Positions 8,093 through 23,181 of a DNA stretch of 64,000 nucleotides are shown here, piece after piece. The notes under the pieces are model-generated. The model worked only from the letters and a program-made list of their open reading frames with translations. It did no database searches and had not been told where the DNA came from. Origin of the DNA: a virus (taxonomy: Duplodnaviria; Heunggongvirae; Uroviricota; Caudoviricetes); IMG/VR virus record IMGVR_UViG_3300023174_000034; one strand, written 5' to 3'. Position 1 is the stretch's first letter. Every line of letters begins with the position of its first letter. The translations under genes were made by a program, and so were the position numbers.

Positions 8093-8117
8093 CCCTTGAT
8101 TTACAAGGGTTTTTTTG
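8093..8117 (+). terminator. Rho-independent terminator (CCCTTGatttaCAAGGG + T-run).
   Basis: Hairpin followed by TTTTTTTGTGGTTTTTTT. Confidence 0.6.
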
Positions 8118-8141
8118 TGGTTTTTTTGCAACACAAAACGG

Positions 8142-8170
8142 TTGACCAAAATAGCCCGTTTTGCTATACT
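8142..8170 (+). promoter_or_regulatory. Sigma70-like promoter, family copy 1 (TTGACC-N17-TATACT).
   Basis: Conserved AAAACGGTTGACC...TTTTGCTATACT. AAGGAG RBS and ATG about 30 nt downstream. Confidence 0.6.
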
Positions 8171-8200
8171 AGTGGCATATTAAGTAAAAAGGAGCTGGAA

Positions 8201-8587
8201 ATGAAAAACTGGACAGACACTTGCATCAACTGGAATCAACTGCCGGGCACTGAAGTCAAACGACTGATTGACACTTGGGGCTTCACTCCAGAACAGATTG
8301 CCAAGTACGACAAGAAACACAATTTTGTGACTGCGCCCGCAAAGCCTGTTACCAAAACGGAAGCCACGACTCCTGCAAAGGCTGTCAAAAAGGCAACCAC
8401 GGTACCGGCCAAGAAGGCGGCAGTCACATCTCCTGCTCGTCAAAAGCACACAGGTGCTGACGGCGAAATCAAATTTGTAGCACACCGCAATCTGTTTGTG
8501 GGCTTTATGCACGGCAAGGTTGTGATAACCAAACGCACCGAAGCACAATGCCGCGAGTTCTTGATCAAAGAATACGGCGCAGAATAA
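8201..8587 (+). CDS. Hypothetical early protein with a K/A/T-rich middle region.
   Basis: ATG at 8201, 7 nt after GGAG, downstream of the family promoter. Confidence 0.5.
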   Translation: MKNWTDTCINWNQLPGTEVKRLIDTWGFTPEQIAKYDKKHNFVTAPAKPVTKTEATTPAKAVKKATTVPAKKAAVTSPARQKHTGADGEIKFVAHRNLFVGFMHGKVVITKRTEAQCREFLIKEYGAE

Positions 8588-8591
8588 ACGG

Positions 8592-8620
8592 TTGACCAAG
8601 AAACCCATTTCAGCTACAAT
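8592..8620 (+). promoter_or_regulatory. Sigma70-like promoter, family copy 2 (TTGACC-N17-TACAAT).
   Basis: Same conserved context, followed by GGAG and ATG at 8651. Confidence 0.55.
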
Positions 8621-8650
8621 AGTGGCATATTAAGTAAAAAGGAGTTGACT

Positions 8651-8740
8651 ATGAAATGGCTTGTACCCATTGTGCTGATTTTTTTCGGTGAACTGTGGAT
8701 TGCACTTGTAGTCACTGTCTTATTTTTGGCTTTTGAATAA
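8651..8740 (+). CDS. 29-aa hydrophobic peptide (MKWLVPIVLIFFGELWIALVVTVLFLAFE).
   Basis: Promoter+RBS-driven small ORF immediately upstream of rIIA. Confidence 0.3.
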   Translation: MKWLVPIVLIFFGELWIALVVTVLFLAFE

Positions 8741-8748
8741 GGAACAAC

Positions 8749-10941
8749 ATGATCATCAGTAACGCACCAGCCCACGAAGCTGTCCTGTCTAATGTAGGCG
8801 AAATCGGCGAGTTCCGTATCCGCAACTCAGCCAAGGCCTTTAATATTCTTAGCTCTGGCCTTTACGCCAACAAGATCCGTGCCATCGTGCGCGAGCTCTC
8901 TTGCAATGCAGTAGATAGCCATACAGCCGCAGGCCGCCAAGACACACCCTTTGATGTACACTTGCCCAACCAGCTGGACCCTACCTTTAGCATCCGTGAC
9001 TATGGCACTGGCCTGACTCATGCACAGGTGCAGAACATCTACACCACCTACTTTGAGTCAACCAAGACCGAAAGCAATGCGTTCATTGGCGCACTTGGAC
9101 TGGGTAGCAAAAGCCCGTTCAGTTACACAGACAACTTCACTGTGACTGCTATCAAAGATGGTACCCGCGGTGTGTACAGTGCATTCATCAACGGCGAAGG
9201 CGTGCCTAGCATTGTGCTCATGCACTCAGAGCCCACAGATCAGCCTGCAGGTGTTGAGGTTAAATTTGCAGTAAACAGCCGCAATGACTTCCACAAGTTC
9301 GAAGAAGAAGCTCGCTATGTGTACACCTACTTTGCTCTGCGCCCTGTGGTGTCAGGTGGTGACAGCGACTTCCGTTTCCGCGACGTTGACTACAAGGAAA
9401 AGAACATTATCCCGGGTGTGCATTACACTGACAGTCGTTCCAGCCGTGCTGTGATGGGCAATATTTCCTATCCGATCGATGTGCCCAATGCAGAAACCGC
9501 ACTAGGCGATCTCCACAGGCTCTTGGACTGTGGATTGGAAATGCATTTTGACATTGGCGAACTGGACTTCCAGGCCAGCCGCGAAGGCTTGAGCTACATT
9601 CCGCAGACCGTGAATGCTATCCGTGCCAAGCTAGAAGCACTCAACGCTCAGTTGGCTGTTCACGTGCAACTGGAAGCAGACATCATTGCCAATGATTGGG
9701 AAAAAGTTTACTTCTTGCAAAAGAAAGCCAACGAAACCCTGTTCAAGTCAGCGGCTGTGAAGTATGCACAGGATACCAAATTTGATCTGATTGACACTGC
9801 CAACAGCTACTACATGCGTGGTGTGCCACTCAAGTTTGATATCAAAGACTTGGCCAGCAAGTACAACATCGAGATATTGGCTTTCCAAAAGAGCCGTCAC
9901 GGTGCCACTTGCTCTGAGATCAAACCCAGCAAGGTGTATCCAACTGCTACGATTATCGCCGCAACAGATATCAATCAAGTGTGGGAATTTACCATTGACC
10001 CTAGCAACATCTTTGTGGTCAATGATACCCGTATTGGTGCGTTGAGCCGTGCCAAGTATCACTGGCGCAATGCCGAAGCCAAAGGTATCGCTTTGCCAAG
10101 CAAGAGCCATACCAATAATGTGTACGTTTTGAGTCCTGCTACTAAAGGCAAGGTCATGGATACCATTGGCTTCTTTGCTGACATGCGTGACCCTCCTGTG
10201 ATTCAGCGCATGGTAGCCAGCGAGCTCATGCTCAAAGATCGCAAGACTGGCGCCGCAGGCATGGGTGCTAATGTAAGTATCCTGCGCCTGGCTCAACGTG
10301 GCTACGGTGGCTATCACAAAGAGCGTGAACTAGTCTGGAAGGATGCAGGCAAGGCTGATCAATTTGATGACAGCGAAACCTACTACTACCTGCCACTCAG
10401 TGGTTTTACTGTGATATCAAATGGTACGCCTATCACACAAAACATGCGTCACTTCAGTGATCTGGTTACCGAATCAGGCATCCCAGGTTTGCAAGGTATC
10501 AACATTCTTGGTGTGCGTAAAACGGACATTGAGTACATCAAGACTCAATCCAATTGGATCAATGTGCAAGATCACATTCGCACAGTTTTGGCAAAGTTGG
10601 ATCCAAAAGTTGTACAACAATGTGCGTTGAAACAGATTGACACGAACAAGTATTTCCGCTACAATAAGGTTATTGCAAAACTAGTGTCGCCTAACAGTGC
10701 ATATTCAAAGTTTTTGGCTCAGTTCAAATTCGTTGACAATGTTACAGTTAACAAGCACAGTTTGCAAAAATTGTGCTGTGACTATGCAACACCAGTTGAC
10801 GTGGACACGGTTGTCCAGGGCCTTACGGATCAATTGACTGCCATCCGTAATCGCTATCCACTCTTGAGCAGTTTGCGTGACTACGACATCAATGCAGATG
10901 CTGTGGCACAGTACATTAACTTGATTGACAAAGAGGCTTAA
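8749..10941 (+). CDS. rIIA: rIIA membrane-associated protector protein (GHKL/HATPase_c-like N-terminus).
   Basis: 730 aa. ELSCNAVDS...IRDYGTGL...GALGLGSKSPF resemble Bergerat-fold ATPase motifs. Size and position immediately upstream of a clear rIIB. Confidence 0.8.
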   Translation: MIISNAPAHEAVLSNVGEIGEFRIRNSAKAFNILSSGLYANKIRAIVRELSCNAVDSHTAAGRQDTPFDVHLPNQLDPTFSIRDYGTGLTHAQVQNIYTTYFESTKTESNAFIGALGLGSKSPFSYTDNFTVTAIKDGTRGVYSAFINGEGVPSIVLMHSEPTDQPAGVEVKFAVNSRNDFHKFEEEARYVYTYFALRPVVSGGDSDFRFRDVDYKEKNIIPGVHYTDSRSSRAVMGNISYPIDVPNAETALGDLHRLLDCGLEMHFDIGELDFQASREGLSYIPQTVNAIRAKLEALNAQLAVHVQLEADIIANDWEKVYFLQKKANETLFKSAAVKYAQDTKFDLIDTANSYYMRGVPLKFDIKDLASKYNIEILAFQKSRHGATCSEIKPSKVYPTATIIAATDINQVWEFTIDPSNIFVVNDTRIGALSRAKYHWRNAEAKGIALPSKSHTNNVYVLSPATKGKVMDTIGFFADMRDPPVIQRMVASELMLKDRKTGAAGMGANVSILRLAQRGYGGYHKERELVWKDAGKADQFDDSETYYYLPLSGFTVISNGTPITQNMRHFSDLVTESGIPGLQGINILGVRKTDIEYIKTQSNWINVQDHIRTVLAKLDPKVVQQCALKQIDTNKYFRYNKVIAKLVSPNSAYSKFLAQFKFVDNVTVNKHSLQKLCCDYATPVDVDTVVQGLTDQLTAIRNRYPLLSSLRDYDINADAVAQYINLIDKEA

Positions 10942-22371: not shown

Positions 22372-22483
22372 TGGTTATTACTAACACAGAATCATGAAAT
22401 TCAGTATGTGATTTTTCCATTTTTACCTGTACACTAGGCATACATACATTAGACATCACGGTATGTTCAACTAGGAGAAAATT

Positions 22484-22558
22484 ATGAAATGGTCTACACC
22501 AACTGCAAGCGACATGCGTTTCGGGTTCGAAATCACTATGTACATTGCAAATCGTTAA
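22484..22558 (+). CDS. pqqA: PqqA-like precursor peptide (24 aa: MKWSTPTASDMRFGFEITMYIANR).
   Basis: AGGAG RBS 7 nt upstream. Matches the PqqA family pattern W-x-x-P...D-[LM]-R-x-G-F-E-[VI]-T-[LM]-Y-x-[AS]-N-R with the Glu-x3-Tyr crosslink pair. Terminator follows. Confidence 0.5.
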   Translation: MKWSTPTASDMRFGFEITMYIANR

Positions 22559-22583
22559 TCAGTTAACAAAAGTACTACCAGGA

Positions 22584-22611
22584 AAACCCTTGTTGATCAA
22601 GGGTTTTTTTG
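22584..22611 (+). terminator. Rho-independent terminator (AAACCCTTGttgatCAAGGGTTT + TTTTT), cassette copy 3.
   Basis: Same stem family as the hairpins at 8093 and 12906. Confidence 0.6.
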
Positions 22612-22624
22612 TGGCCTAAAACGG

Positions 22625-22653
22625 TTGACCAAGAATGCCCATTTTGCTATAAT
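22625..22653 (+). promoter_or_regulatory. Sigma70-like promoter, family copy 6 (TTGACC-N17-TATAAT).
   Basis: Conserved AAAACGGTTGACCAAGAATGCCCATTTTGCTATAAT. Confidence 0.6.
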
Positions 22654-22682
22654 AGCGACATGTTCAATAAAAAGGTGTTGAC

Positions 22683-23132
22683 ATGACCCTGCTTGTTTTT
22701 CTTGTTGCATTTGCAATCTTTTGCGTTCGCAGTAATTCGGGCTATTGGCTACTGGTACTGCCCGGCACGATTGTACACGAAAGTCTACATTATTTCACAG
22801 GCAAACTTTTGTTTGCAGGTCCGCAGACTTTTAACATTGTGCCACAACATCACGAGAACGGCACCTGCTACGGCTCTGTGGACTTTGACAATTTGAATGA
22901 GTTCAATGCGCCGCCCACTGCACTTGCACCCTTGCTAGGTGTGCCTTTGGTTTACTATGTGTGGCCCTACTTGCAAACAACACAAAATGGCTGGGCTCAG
23001 ATTGCTATCATTTGGGCCTTGGCCGCGATTGTTGCACAAAGCTGGCCTAGCTCAACTGACTGGGCTGTGGCACTAAAGCATCCGTTGGGACTAGTACTTT
23101 GGACTGTCTTTATCGGCTGGATTTTGTTGTGA
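22683..23132 (+). CDS. Small membrane protein with an HExxH motif (GTIVHESLHYFTG), a possible minimal zinc peptidase.
   Basis: 149 aa. Hydrophobic N- and C-terminal segments. Confidence 0.45.
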   Translation: MTLLVFLVAFAIFCVRSNSGYWLLVLPGTIVHESLHYFTGKLLFAGPQTFNIVPQHHENGTCYGSVDFDNLNEFNAPPTALAPLLGVPLVYYVWPYLQTTQNGWAQIAIIWALAAIVAQSWPSSTDWAVALKHPLGLVLWTVFIGWILL

Positions 23133-23152
23133 AAATACAACAAATAAAACGG

Positions 23153-23181
23153 TTGACCATAAATGCCCGTTTTGCTATACT
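23153..23181 (+). promoter_or_regulatory. Sigma70-like promoter, family copy 7 (TTGACC-N17-TATACT).
   Basis: Conserved context. AAGGAG and ATG at 23212. Confidence 0.6.

Follow-up and report, generated by a model that had tools for sequence, protein, structure and literature searches.

The closest described counterparts of the element treated here are the promoter-early stem-loops (PeSL) of T4-type phages, known from RB49/phi1, T4/PST and KVP40/nt-1 (Arbiol 2010, PMC2839356; Comeau 2014, PMC4122927). A PeSL is a composite repeat of ~100 bp that combines a stem-loop terminator, an AT-rich region, a strong sigma70-like early promoter, a Shine-Dalgarno sequence and a start codon; these repeats are concentrated among ORFans, follow a lineage-specific consensus and act as crossover points for the deletion, insertion or replacement of flanked genes, and the excision of mini-circles during infection is a further trait (PMC2839356, PMC4122927). 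In some subclasses the stem-loop overlaps the -35 element (PMC2839356). Early promoter consensus sequences of T4-type phages are likewise lineage-specific (Nolan 2006, PMC1524935), and the early promoters of T4 itself are 'uber' promoters in which UP, -35, TGn and -10 elements are joined by further consensus regions (Hinton 2010, PMC2988021). Here, we describe a family of promoter modules, some of them joined to a terminator, in a 64,000-nt stretch of the virus record IMGVR_UViG_3300023174_000034 (the whole stretch is hereafter called the window). The family is best filed with PeSL and T4-type early promoters, within an uncultured jumbo phage clade, and we consider it likely that its modules serve as the standard early transcription-translation units of that clade and behave as PeSL-like recombining cassettes.

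Seven plus-strand copies of (A)AAACGG-TTGACC-N17-TA(T/C)A(C/A)T, which we call class A, lie in the window at 8142, 8592, 12960, 13285, 13616, 22625 and 23153 (first base of the -35 hexamer), exactly where an initial annotation made from the DNA alone had placed them. With up to two mismatches, AAAACGGTTGACC matches the window 8 times against 1.9 expected, a number reached by none of 100 shuffles, and TTGACC-N17-TAYMMT with up to one mismatch matches 18 times against 2.4 expected. A position weight matrix built from the seven copies returned just those seven in 64 kb, at 34-60 bits, with no further site above 12 bits and no match on the minus strand. A repeat search of the window recovered a 71-nt family of six copies (72-100% identity), an additional 85-nt family and a 32-nt terminator family at 8089-8120, 12905-12936 and 22583-22614. 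Each of the seven copies stands between genes and is oriented like them, and none of this motif lies inside a gene; the copies are confined to 8.1-23.2 kb, among ORFans without a Pfam or PHROG function, with none in the other 49 kb. Their -10 elements are TATACT (four copies), TACAAT (two) and TATAAT (one), so that the earlier description, TAT(A/C)(C/A)T, covers the first and the last and misses the two TACAAT copies.

Two sites that had been listed as looser relatives do not belong to the family. The one at 14307 is a generic, unrelated promoter-like site (TTGACT-N17-TACAAT) that lacks the spacer motif, and at 34901 the elements ATAACGGTTGACA and TGC-TATACT stand 50 nt apart. The latter site has the look of an interrupted family promoter (34862-34930, with ATAACGGTTGACA at 34862-34874 and TGC-TATACT at 34922-34930), and its insert holds a perfect 9-bp inverted repeat, CAAGCAAGA-N11-TCTTGCTTG, at 34880-34908.

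Positions within the module are numbered from a putative start site 7 nt past the -10, a position supported by some family members and three other window promoters with an ATG exactly there, like leaderless genes. On this numbering the module reads as follows.

-56 to -50: T-tract, in the terminator-carrying copies
-42 to -39: A-tract
-37/-36: GG
-35 to -30: TTGACC, the -35 element
First spacer half: variable, A-rich
-22 to -16: CC(C)(A/G)TTT, the spacer motif
-15 to -13: TGC
-12 to -7: TATACT, TACAAT or TATAAT, the -10 element
Downstream of the -10: A/U-rich leader of ~23 nt with AAGGAG at its end

All seven copies score 10-11 of 12 hexamer matches at 17-bp spacing. A TGn extended -10 (TGC-TATACT, TGC-TACAAT or TGC-TATAAT) is found in five of the seven, the copies at 8592 and 13616 being without it, and these TG pairs, at -15/-14, correspond to the standard extended -10 element, which sigma70 region 3 recognises (PMC2988021). 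T7 and A4 tracts precede the promoter, an AT-rich stretch as in PeSL, and together the T-tract and A-tract would resemble an UP element as described in PMC2988021. With its A-tract and GG, TTGACC, 17-bp spacer, TGn and -10, the module is thus predicted to be a sigma70-type "all-elements" promoter. In every copy the ATG comes 29-30 nt past the end of the -10, with GGAG (GGTG at 22625) 5-6 nt before it, in agreement with the AAGGAG and ATG that had been noticed downstream of each. The fixed leader and the ribosome-binding site belong to the repeat, which went unmentioned in the initial annotation, and give a module of ~70 nt, or ~110 nt with the terminator. Within the window the copies are mosaic: those at 8142 and 8592 share one leader, and those at 12960 and 23153 share another, together with the upstream sequence ACAACAAATAAAACGG.

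The three other promoters with an in-frame ATG 5-6 nt past the -10 (34925-34939, 35339-35353 and 38056-38069) stand before leaderless-looking genes, the open reading frames (ORFs) 34937-35272, 35351-36172 and 38067-38255. About 20 class-A sites among the IMG/VR matches listed are also leaderless-like, and the window has a phage IF-1 gene nearby.

The individual cassettes, with the genes that follow them, are these.

8089-8120, + strand: intrinsic terminator of cassette 1, CCCTTG-ATTTA-CAAGGG then T7, -10.6 kcal/mol, after an AMP-binding gene (stop at 8064)
8135-8200, + strand: class-A promoter and leader 1, with AAAACGG, -35 TTGACC at 8142-8147, spacer aaaatagCCCGTTTTGC, -10 TATACT at 8165-8170 and leader AGTGGCATATTAAGTAAAAAGGAGCTGGAA
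8201-8587: gene after promoter 1, ATG at 8201, a 128-amino-acid ORFan
8585-8650, + strand: class-A promoter and leader 2, -35 at 8592-8597, -10 TACAAT at 8615-8620, without TGn, overlapping the stop codon of 8201-8587
8651-8740, 8749-10941, 10943-11770 and 11812-12888: genes after promoter 2, namely a 29-amino-acid ORF, rIIA, rIIB and an AAA ATPase
12903-12936, + strand: intrinsic terminator of cassette 3, AAAAAGCCCTTG-TAAAT-CAAGGGCTTTTTT, -22.5 kcal/mol (z -6.0), after the ATPase gene
12953-13018, + strand: class-A promoter and leader 3, -35 at 12960-12965, TGC-TATACT at 12980-12988, followed by ATG 13019 of an 86-amino-acid ORFan
13278-13343, + strand: class-A promoter and leader 4, -35 at 13285-13290, -10 TACAAT at 13308-13313, overlapping the upstream stop codon
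13344-13598: gene after promoter 4, ATG at 13344, an 84-amino-acid ORFan missing in relative L008
13609-13673, + strand: class-A promoter and leader 5, -35 at 13616-13621, -10 TATACT at 13639-13644, the most diverged copy, without AAAACGG and with the spacer motif displaced by 1 nt
13674: ATG of the gene after promoter 5, 157 amino acids, PHROG 1987 (function unknown)
22583-22614, + strand: intrinsic terminator of cassette 6, AAAACCCTTG-TTGAT-CAAGGGTTTTTTT, -18.9 kcal/mol
22618-22682, + strand: class-A promoter and leader 6, -35 at 22625-22630, TGC-TATAAT at 22645-22653, Shine-Dalgarno GGTG, followed by ATG 22683 of a 149-amino-acid ORFan
23122-23211, + strand: class-A promoter and leader 7, -35 at 23153-23158, TGC-TATACT at 23173-23181, followed by ATG 23212 of a gene of 108 amino acids, PHROG 22149 (function unknown)

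Two further statements of the initial annotation are borne out by these features. The CCCTTG/CAAGGG hairpin with T-tracts that it saw before three copies folds in each of them, at the energies given above, and what it regarded as a discrete promoter family with three members joined to a common intrinsic terminator holds at the level of sequence, the promoter being of predicted sigma70 type. The genes behind the promoters are, as it said, small unknowns plus rIIA, that is, ORFans and the rIIA-rIIB-ATPase block; Pfam and PHROGs gave no function for the driven ORFans. Under a strict rule, a terminator-like hairpin stands upstream of 21 of 171 family members, a more general count of hairpins upstream of the same 171 being too permissive to inform, and no Rfam family overlaps the cassettes. 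Upstream of promoter 7 lies a weak AT-loop hairpin (TTGTTG-N8-CAACAA, 23124-23143), which includes the stop codon of gene 22683-23132. Hairpins of this type, (G)TGTTG-W6-8-CAACA(C), recur ~10-30 nt 5' of the -35 here and in relatives L024, L025, L044, L048 and L101, and a loose regular expression for them matches 16 of 171 family members. The gene set used has no ORF in the ~210 nt (22372-22582) that separate gene 22141-22371 from the cassette 6 terminator.

The same 70-110 nt recur head-to-tail between the small genes, so that copies recombine homologously and the genes that they flank are deleted, inserted or swapped; the gene content of the cassette region (8.1-23.2 kb) varies between relatives. 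For example, relative L008 is without the 84-amino-acid gene 13344-13598, and the sole promoter remaining there (L008 14542) is a chimera, like window copy 13285 as far as TTGACC and like window copy 13616 beyond that point. Window copy 22625 and L011 7109 are alike through the terminator and promoter to the -10, after which the genes are unrelated. Between the left cassette and the rIIA promoter, the genes differ in the window, L008 and L018, whose rIIA are 86-96% identical. Finally, the block that runs from the ORFan beginning at 8201 to the ATPase gene immediately precedes the DNA ligase gene in L001, L010 and L011, and lies 11 kb away from the ligase in the window and L008; its homology starts on the left at AACGG-TTGACC and ends on the right at the ATPase stop codon, with a cassette next. 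In comparison with L011, cassette junctions pair window 8142 with L011 7623, 12960 with 12232, and 22625 with 7109. On these alignments, the cassettes are recombination breakpoints for gene gain, loss and replacement, a role that the initial annotation did not consider. An AMP-binding (acyl/aryl-CoA ligase-like) gene at 6682-8064 sits between a GP88-like gene and cassette 1; it is missing at that position in L008, where the GP88-like gene abuts the cassette.

Judged by sequence, the family displays every feature by which PeSL are defined, namely the parts of the composite repeat, siting between small ORFans, a lineage-specific consensus, crossovers inside the cassette and, at times, stem-loops that overlap the -35. 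However, a stable stem-loop is present in only three of the seven copies (8089-8120, 12903-12936 and 22583-22614), the ATG follows the -10 at an almost invariant distance, the spacer element CC(C)(A/G)TTT is conserved clade-wide, and the carrier is an uncultured freshwater jumbo clade (~330-370 kb) that may or may not belong to the T4 superfamily. The likeness to T4-type early promoters (PMC1524935) extends to the A-rich tract at -40 to -44, the G at -36, a GTTGAC-type -35 as in RB49, RB43 and Aeh1, a T/G-rich stretch 5' of the -10 that includes TGn, a preference for G/C bases at -3 to -1, and the driving of ORFans and rII genes. By contrast, the T4 consensus includes neither a C as the last base of the -35 nor the CC(C)RTTT spacer element, and, unlike in T4, the window yielded no Alt-like ADP-ribosyltransferase. 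Beyond the known kind there are only modest additions: the spacer element, a clade-wide invariant C at the sixth -35 position, and the near-invariant distance from promoter to start codon.

T4 middle promoters and N4 hairpin early promoters are also phage-specific classes, and they too have additional conserved sequence that lies between the hexamers or around them. In T4 middle promoters, the MotA box (a/t)(a/t)(a/t)TGCTT(t/c)A, centred at -30, replaces the -35 (PMC2988021). In the present family the -35 is intact and consensus-like, with no TGCTT at -30, and there is no stem of 5-7 bp with a 3-nt loop as in N4-type hairpin promoters; therefore, the mechanisms of sigma appropriation and of a virion RNA polymerase do not apply.

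The spread of the family was followed in loci of relatives fetched solely for encoding rIIA (42-96% identity), a set unbiased as to promoters, and in these it recurs before orthologous and non-orthologous genes. Promoter-like sites in these loci were taken if a Shine-Dalgarno sequence follows, which gave 25 sites with TTGACC and 25 with TTGAC[AGT]. The TTGACC sites are informative at GG (-37/-36), the A-rich first spacer half, CC.TTT, position -6 and the leader, whereas the TTGAC[AGT] sites carry no information outside the hexamers, and the spacer motif stands in register in 16 of the former versus 2 of the latter. The promoter upstream of rIIA retains CCATTT in register in six genomes in which the remainder of the spacer differs, and CC(C)(A/G)TTT is kept in orthologous promoters of relatives with 52-61% identical rIIA, while adjacent spacer positions drift. 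As read from these alignments, CCATTT in the rIIA promoters is conserved by position, and not just through recent duplication, and CC(C)(A/G)TTT is under selection clade-wide.

A scan of IMG/VR with the pattern TTGACC-N8-CCRTTTY-N2-TAYAMT matched at least 120 stretches with at least 138 unique sites; a pattern that also included AAAACGG and GCTA was too strict and gave none. In the 138 sites listed, positions that the pattern left unconstrained are conserved, namely GG, the A-rich half-spacer, GC before the -10, A at -6 and ATAGTAA..AAAAGGAG, and TTTTGC is strongly conserved, also at positions that the search did not constrain. Among the matches listed, a Shine-Dalgarno sequence and start codon follow 108 of the 131 sites with enough flank (95 of the 108 lie 29-32 nt past the -10), about half of the loci share a protein with this 64-kb window alone, and shared proteins link 143 of the 144 loci (window included), so that the carriers belong to one gene pool.

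Bacterial and archaeal genomes, 596 Gb in all, gave 10 matches to the same relaxed pattern, of which five are family-like, and all five lie on small contigs of metagenome-assembled genomes (MAGs) with incompatible taxonomy. These contigs (L144-L147 and L153), which carry typical class-A cassettes, were binned as Lishizhenia, Haliscomenobacter, Saccharibacteria, Polynucleobacter and Legionella, and they are probably mis-binned fragments of this phage clade. An origin of the motif in host promoters is not supported, since no isolate genome in the scan carries it. The near-absence from bacterial genomes, with only mis-binned-looking cases, marks the motif as a signature of the phage clade rather than a type of host promoter.

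INPHARED holds no DNA near-identical to the window (45% G+C), the sole match being 42 nt within a tmRNA gene, and hence there is no close cultured relative. Homologues of window proteins lie on environmental (lake) contigs of 330-371 kb, from which the source is taken to be an uncultured jumbo phage. Its genes in the window include rIIA, rIIB, an AAA ATPase, DNA ligase, large virion proteins and a permuted tmRNA. The rIIA and rIIB proteins match those of T4-like phages at ~32-44% identity, and the structural protein at 53990-57121 is ~43% identical to proteins of T4-like cyanophages; no gene of the T4 core for replication or the capsid could be recognised in the 64-kb window, and a close relative has a PolIII-alpha-like gene (weak Pfam match) beside the structural block.

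Taken together, we propose that the host's sigma70-type RNA polymerase holoenzyme would fire the modules immediately after infection, that the terminator, where present, would insulate each unit from its upstream neighbour, and that the repeated cassettes would let homologous recombination shuffle the flanked small genes, as PeSL do in T4-type phages. Several points weigh against this proposal. Promoter activity, the start site, early timing and use of the host's rather than the phage's polymerase are all deduced from the DNA; four of the seven copies have no stable stem-loop and are therefore promoter-only units; and no standard sigma70 element accounts for CC(C)(A/G)TTT or for the invariant C at the sixth -35 position. 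Within one genome, concerted evolution of the copies could also make conservation look stronger than it is, but it fails to explain conservation across relatives at 52-61% rIIA identity.

The initial annotation took the conserved spacer to indicate something other than a plain sigma70 promoter, such as a regulator binding site, and pointed to a palindrome in it. The palindrome does not exist, as GCCCATTTTGC is not self-complementary (its reverse complement is GCAAAATGGGC), and candidate arms show neither covariation in the 166 members compared nor a stable fold. Taken as a whole, the interpretation is supported in part. CC(C)(A/G)TTT is kept in relatives. Of the conserved spacer, the 3' half, TTTTGC before TATACT, is an ordinary extended -10 TGn, which, being present at -15 to -13 in five of seven copies, makes half of that spacer an ordinary promoter element. 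A constraint beyond the textbook sigma70 elements exists, for which a regulator site is one possible cause; most likely, CC(C)(A/G)TTT tunes the interaction between RNA polymerase and the spacer, or some further factor binds there. The stronger version of the latter idea, in which the spacer motif together with GG-TTGACC is the site of a dedicated factor, phage-encoded or delivered with the virion, that boosts or shuts off this promoter class as a factor-controlled regulon, would account for a motif that keeps its register across relatives while flanking spacer bases drift, that is tied to the TTGACC variant in the proportions given above, and that is nearly absent from bacterial genomes and hence no generic host promoter feature. 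We nevertheless regard such a site as rather unlikely, given that the motif has neither dyad symmetry nor covariation with any partner arm, that no DNA-binding protein was identified among the genes scanned, and that early promoters of T4 and T5 carry extra conserved positions without a dedicated operator (PMC2988021). It is similarly doubtful that the class-A module marks a factor-dependent regulon read by a phage or virion protein or by a modified RNA polymerase. If it did, the protein would give these promoters priority after infection or later switch them off, through a mode of promoter-spacer recognition not described for T4-type early promoters.

Many jumbo phages carry genes for a transcription machinery of their own, and the information content of the family is above that of host-type promoters, both of which would suit a phage sigma factor or RNA polymerase, instead of the host's, as the user of these promoters. 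That reading is nonetheless very improbable in our estimation. The -35, the 17-bp spacing, TGn and the -10 are textbook elements of a housekeeping sigma, the known phage multisubunit RNA polymerases use short AT-rich motifs without a -35, and no sigma factor or RNA polymerase gene was found among the window proteins scanned (64 kb of ~350 kb). There is still less room for the idea that AAAACGG...CCGTTTT flanking the -35 acts as a hairpin, cruciform or palindromic operator, and for class A it is largely refuted. Its arms are perfect over 7-8 bp in the copies at 8142 and 23153, other inverted repeats enclose the -35 in the distant relatives L004-L006 and at window 20843-20879, and stem-loops of PeSL can overlap the -35 (PMC2839356). 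However, CCATTT in most copies breaks the pairing, the copy at 12960 does not fold (-1.6 kcal/mol, z +0.7), the spacer A/G is unlinked to the upstream base across the 166 members (C/A 60, T/A 55, C/G 16, T/G 8), and the spacer motif stays where the upstream arm is missing. Examined as a candidate structure, this repeat gave weak and inconsistent folds without covariation in the 166 members. A second candidate, a GCCCAT/ATGGGC inverted repeat around the -10, is perfect in the L003 and L012 copies, but its arm combinations look unrelated across the 166 members, and it was rejected.

If class-A modules are early PeSL-like units, as we favor, they provide a ~40-bit signature for early genes and hyperplastic regions in a large uncultured freshwater jumbo clade, one that also flags contigs of the clade mis-binned into bacterial MAGs. 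They would extend past cultured T4-like phages the PeSL idea that regulatory cassettes can travel as recombination sites and shuffle accessory genes. For selection on promoter spacers and initial transcribed sequences, the conserved spacer element together with the rigid leader is a compact test case, and the cassettes are candidate strong promoter and ribosome-binding-site parts for synthetic use.

Two further combinations of terminator and promoter occur in the window outside the family.

20281-20333, + strand: generic class-B terminator-promoter pair, in which a hairpin at 20281-20300 abuts TTGACT-N17-TATAAT, with an architecture like that of the family and a sequence unrelated to it
20843-20879, + strand: overlapping terminator and promoter, stem AAAGGCCC/GGGCCTTT (-13.9 kcal/mol), with a TTGACG -35 in or at the loop and the T-tract as spacer before TATAAT

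In the distant relatives, several sigma70-like promoters (L004 5280 and 8321, L005 4268, L006 9929) have their -35 between the arms of inverted repeats of 7-11 bp whose sequences are unrelated (one reads ACAGGACTAG-TTGACAaaaccga-CTAGTCCTGT-TATACT), and these may be combined terminator/promoter units. Promoters with the -35 in a loop, in these relatives and at 20843-20879, match the PeSL subclasses with a stem-loop over the -35 (PMC2839356), and they are a separate matter from the class-A spacer.

Another promoter-like site, TTGACA-N17-TACAAT at 10637-10665, lies inside the 3' part of rIIA, ~290 nt before rIIB, a position that recalls the T4 PrIIB promoters within rIIA. It is conserved in all relatives, down to ~50% rIIA identity, and since it overlaps the conserved peptide KQIDTNKYFRYN, constraint on the protein may explain its conservation.

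The permuted (two-piece) tmRNA was detected by the Rfam model tmRNA_permuted at 15481-15932 (96.6 bits), and ARAGORN calls it tmRNA* with a tag ending in AAFA. It forms a unit at 15443-15996 with its own TTGACA-N17-TATACT promoter (15443-15471) and a terminator (15979-15996); L003, L008 and L011 keep both the promoter and the 5' end. Among cultured phages, the sole DNA match is one of 42 nt in Alcaligenes phage vB_Af_QDWS595, which corresponds to the acceptor/T-arm of this tmRNA gene. Elsewhere in the window, a rubrerythrin gene lies at 20903-21367, and a host-like run of genes encodes IF-1 (44346-44567), an Fe/Mn superoxide dismutase (44568-45137), a 4Fe-4S ferredoxin (45080-45466) and an IscA-type Fe-S assembly protein (45463-45786), a run that is also present in relative L154.

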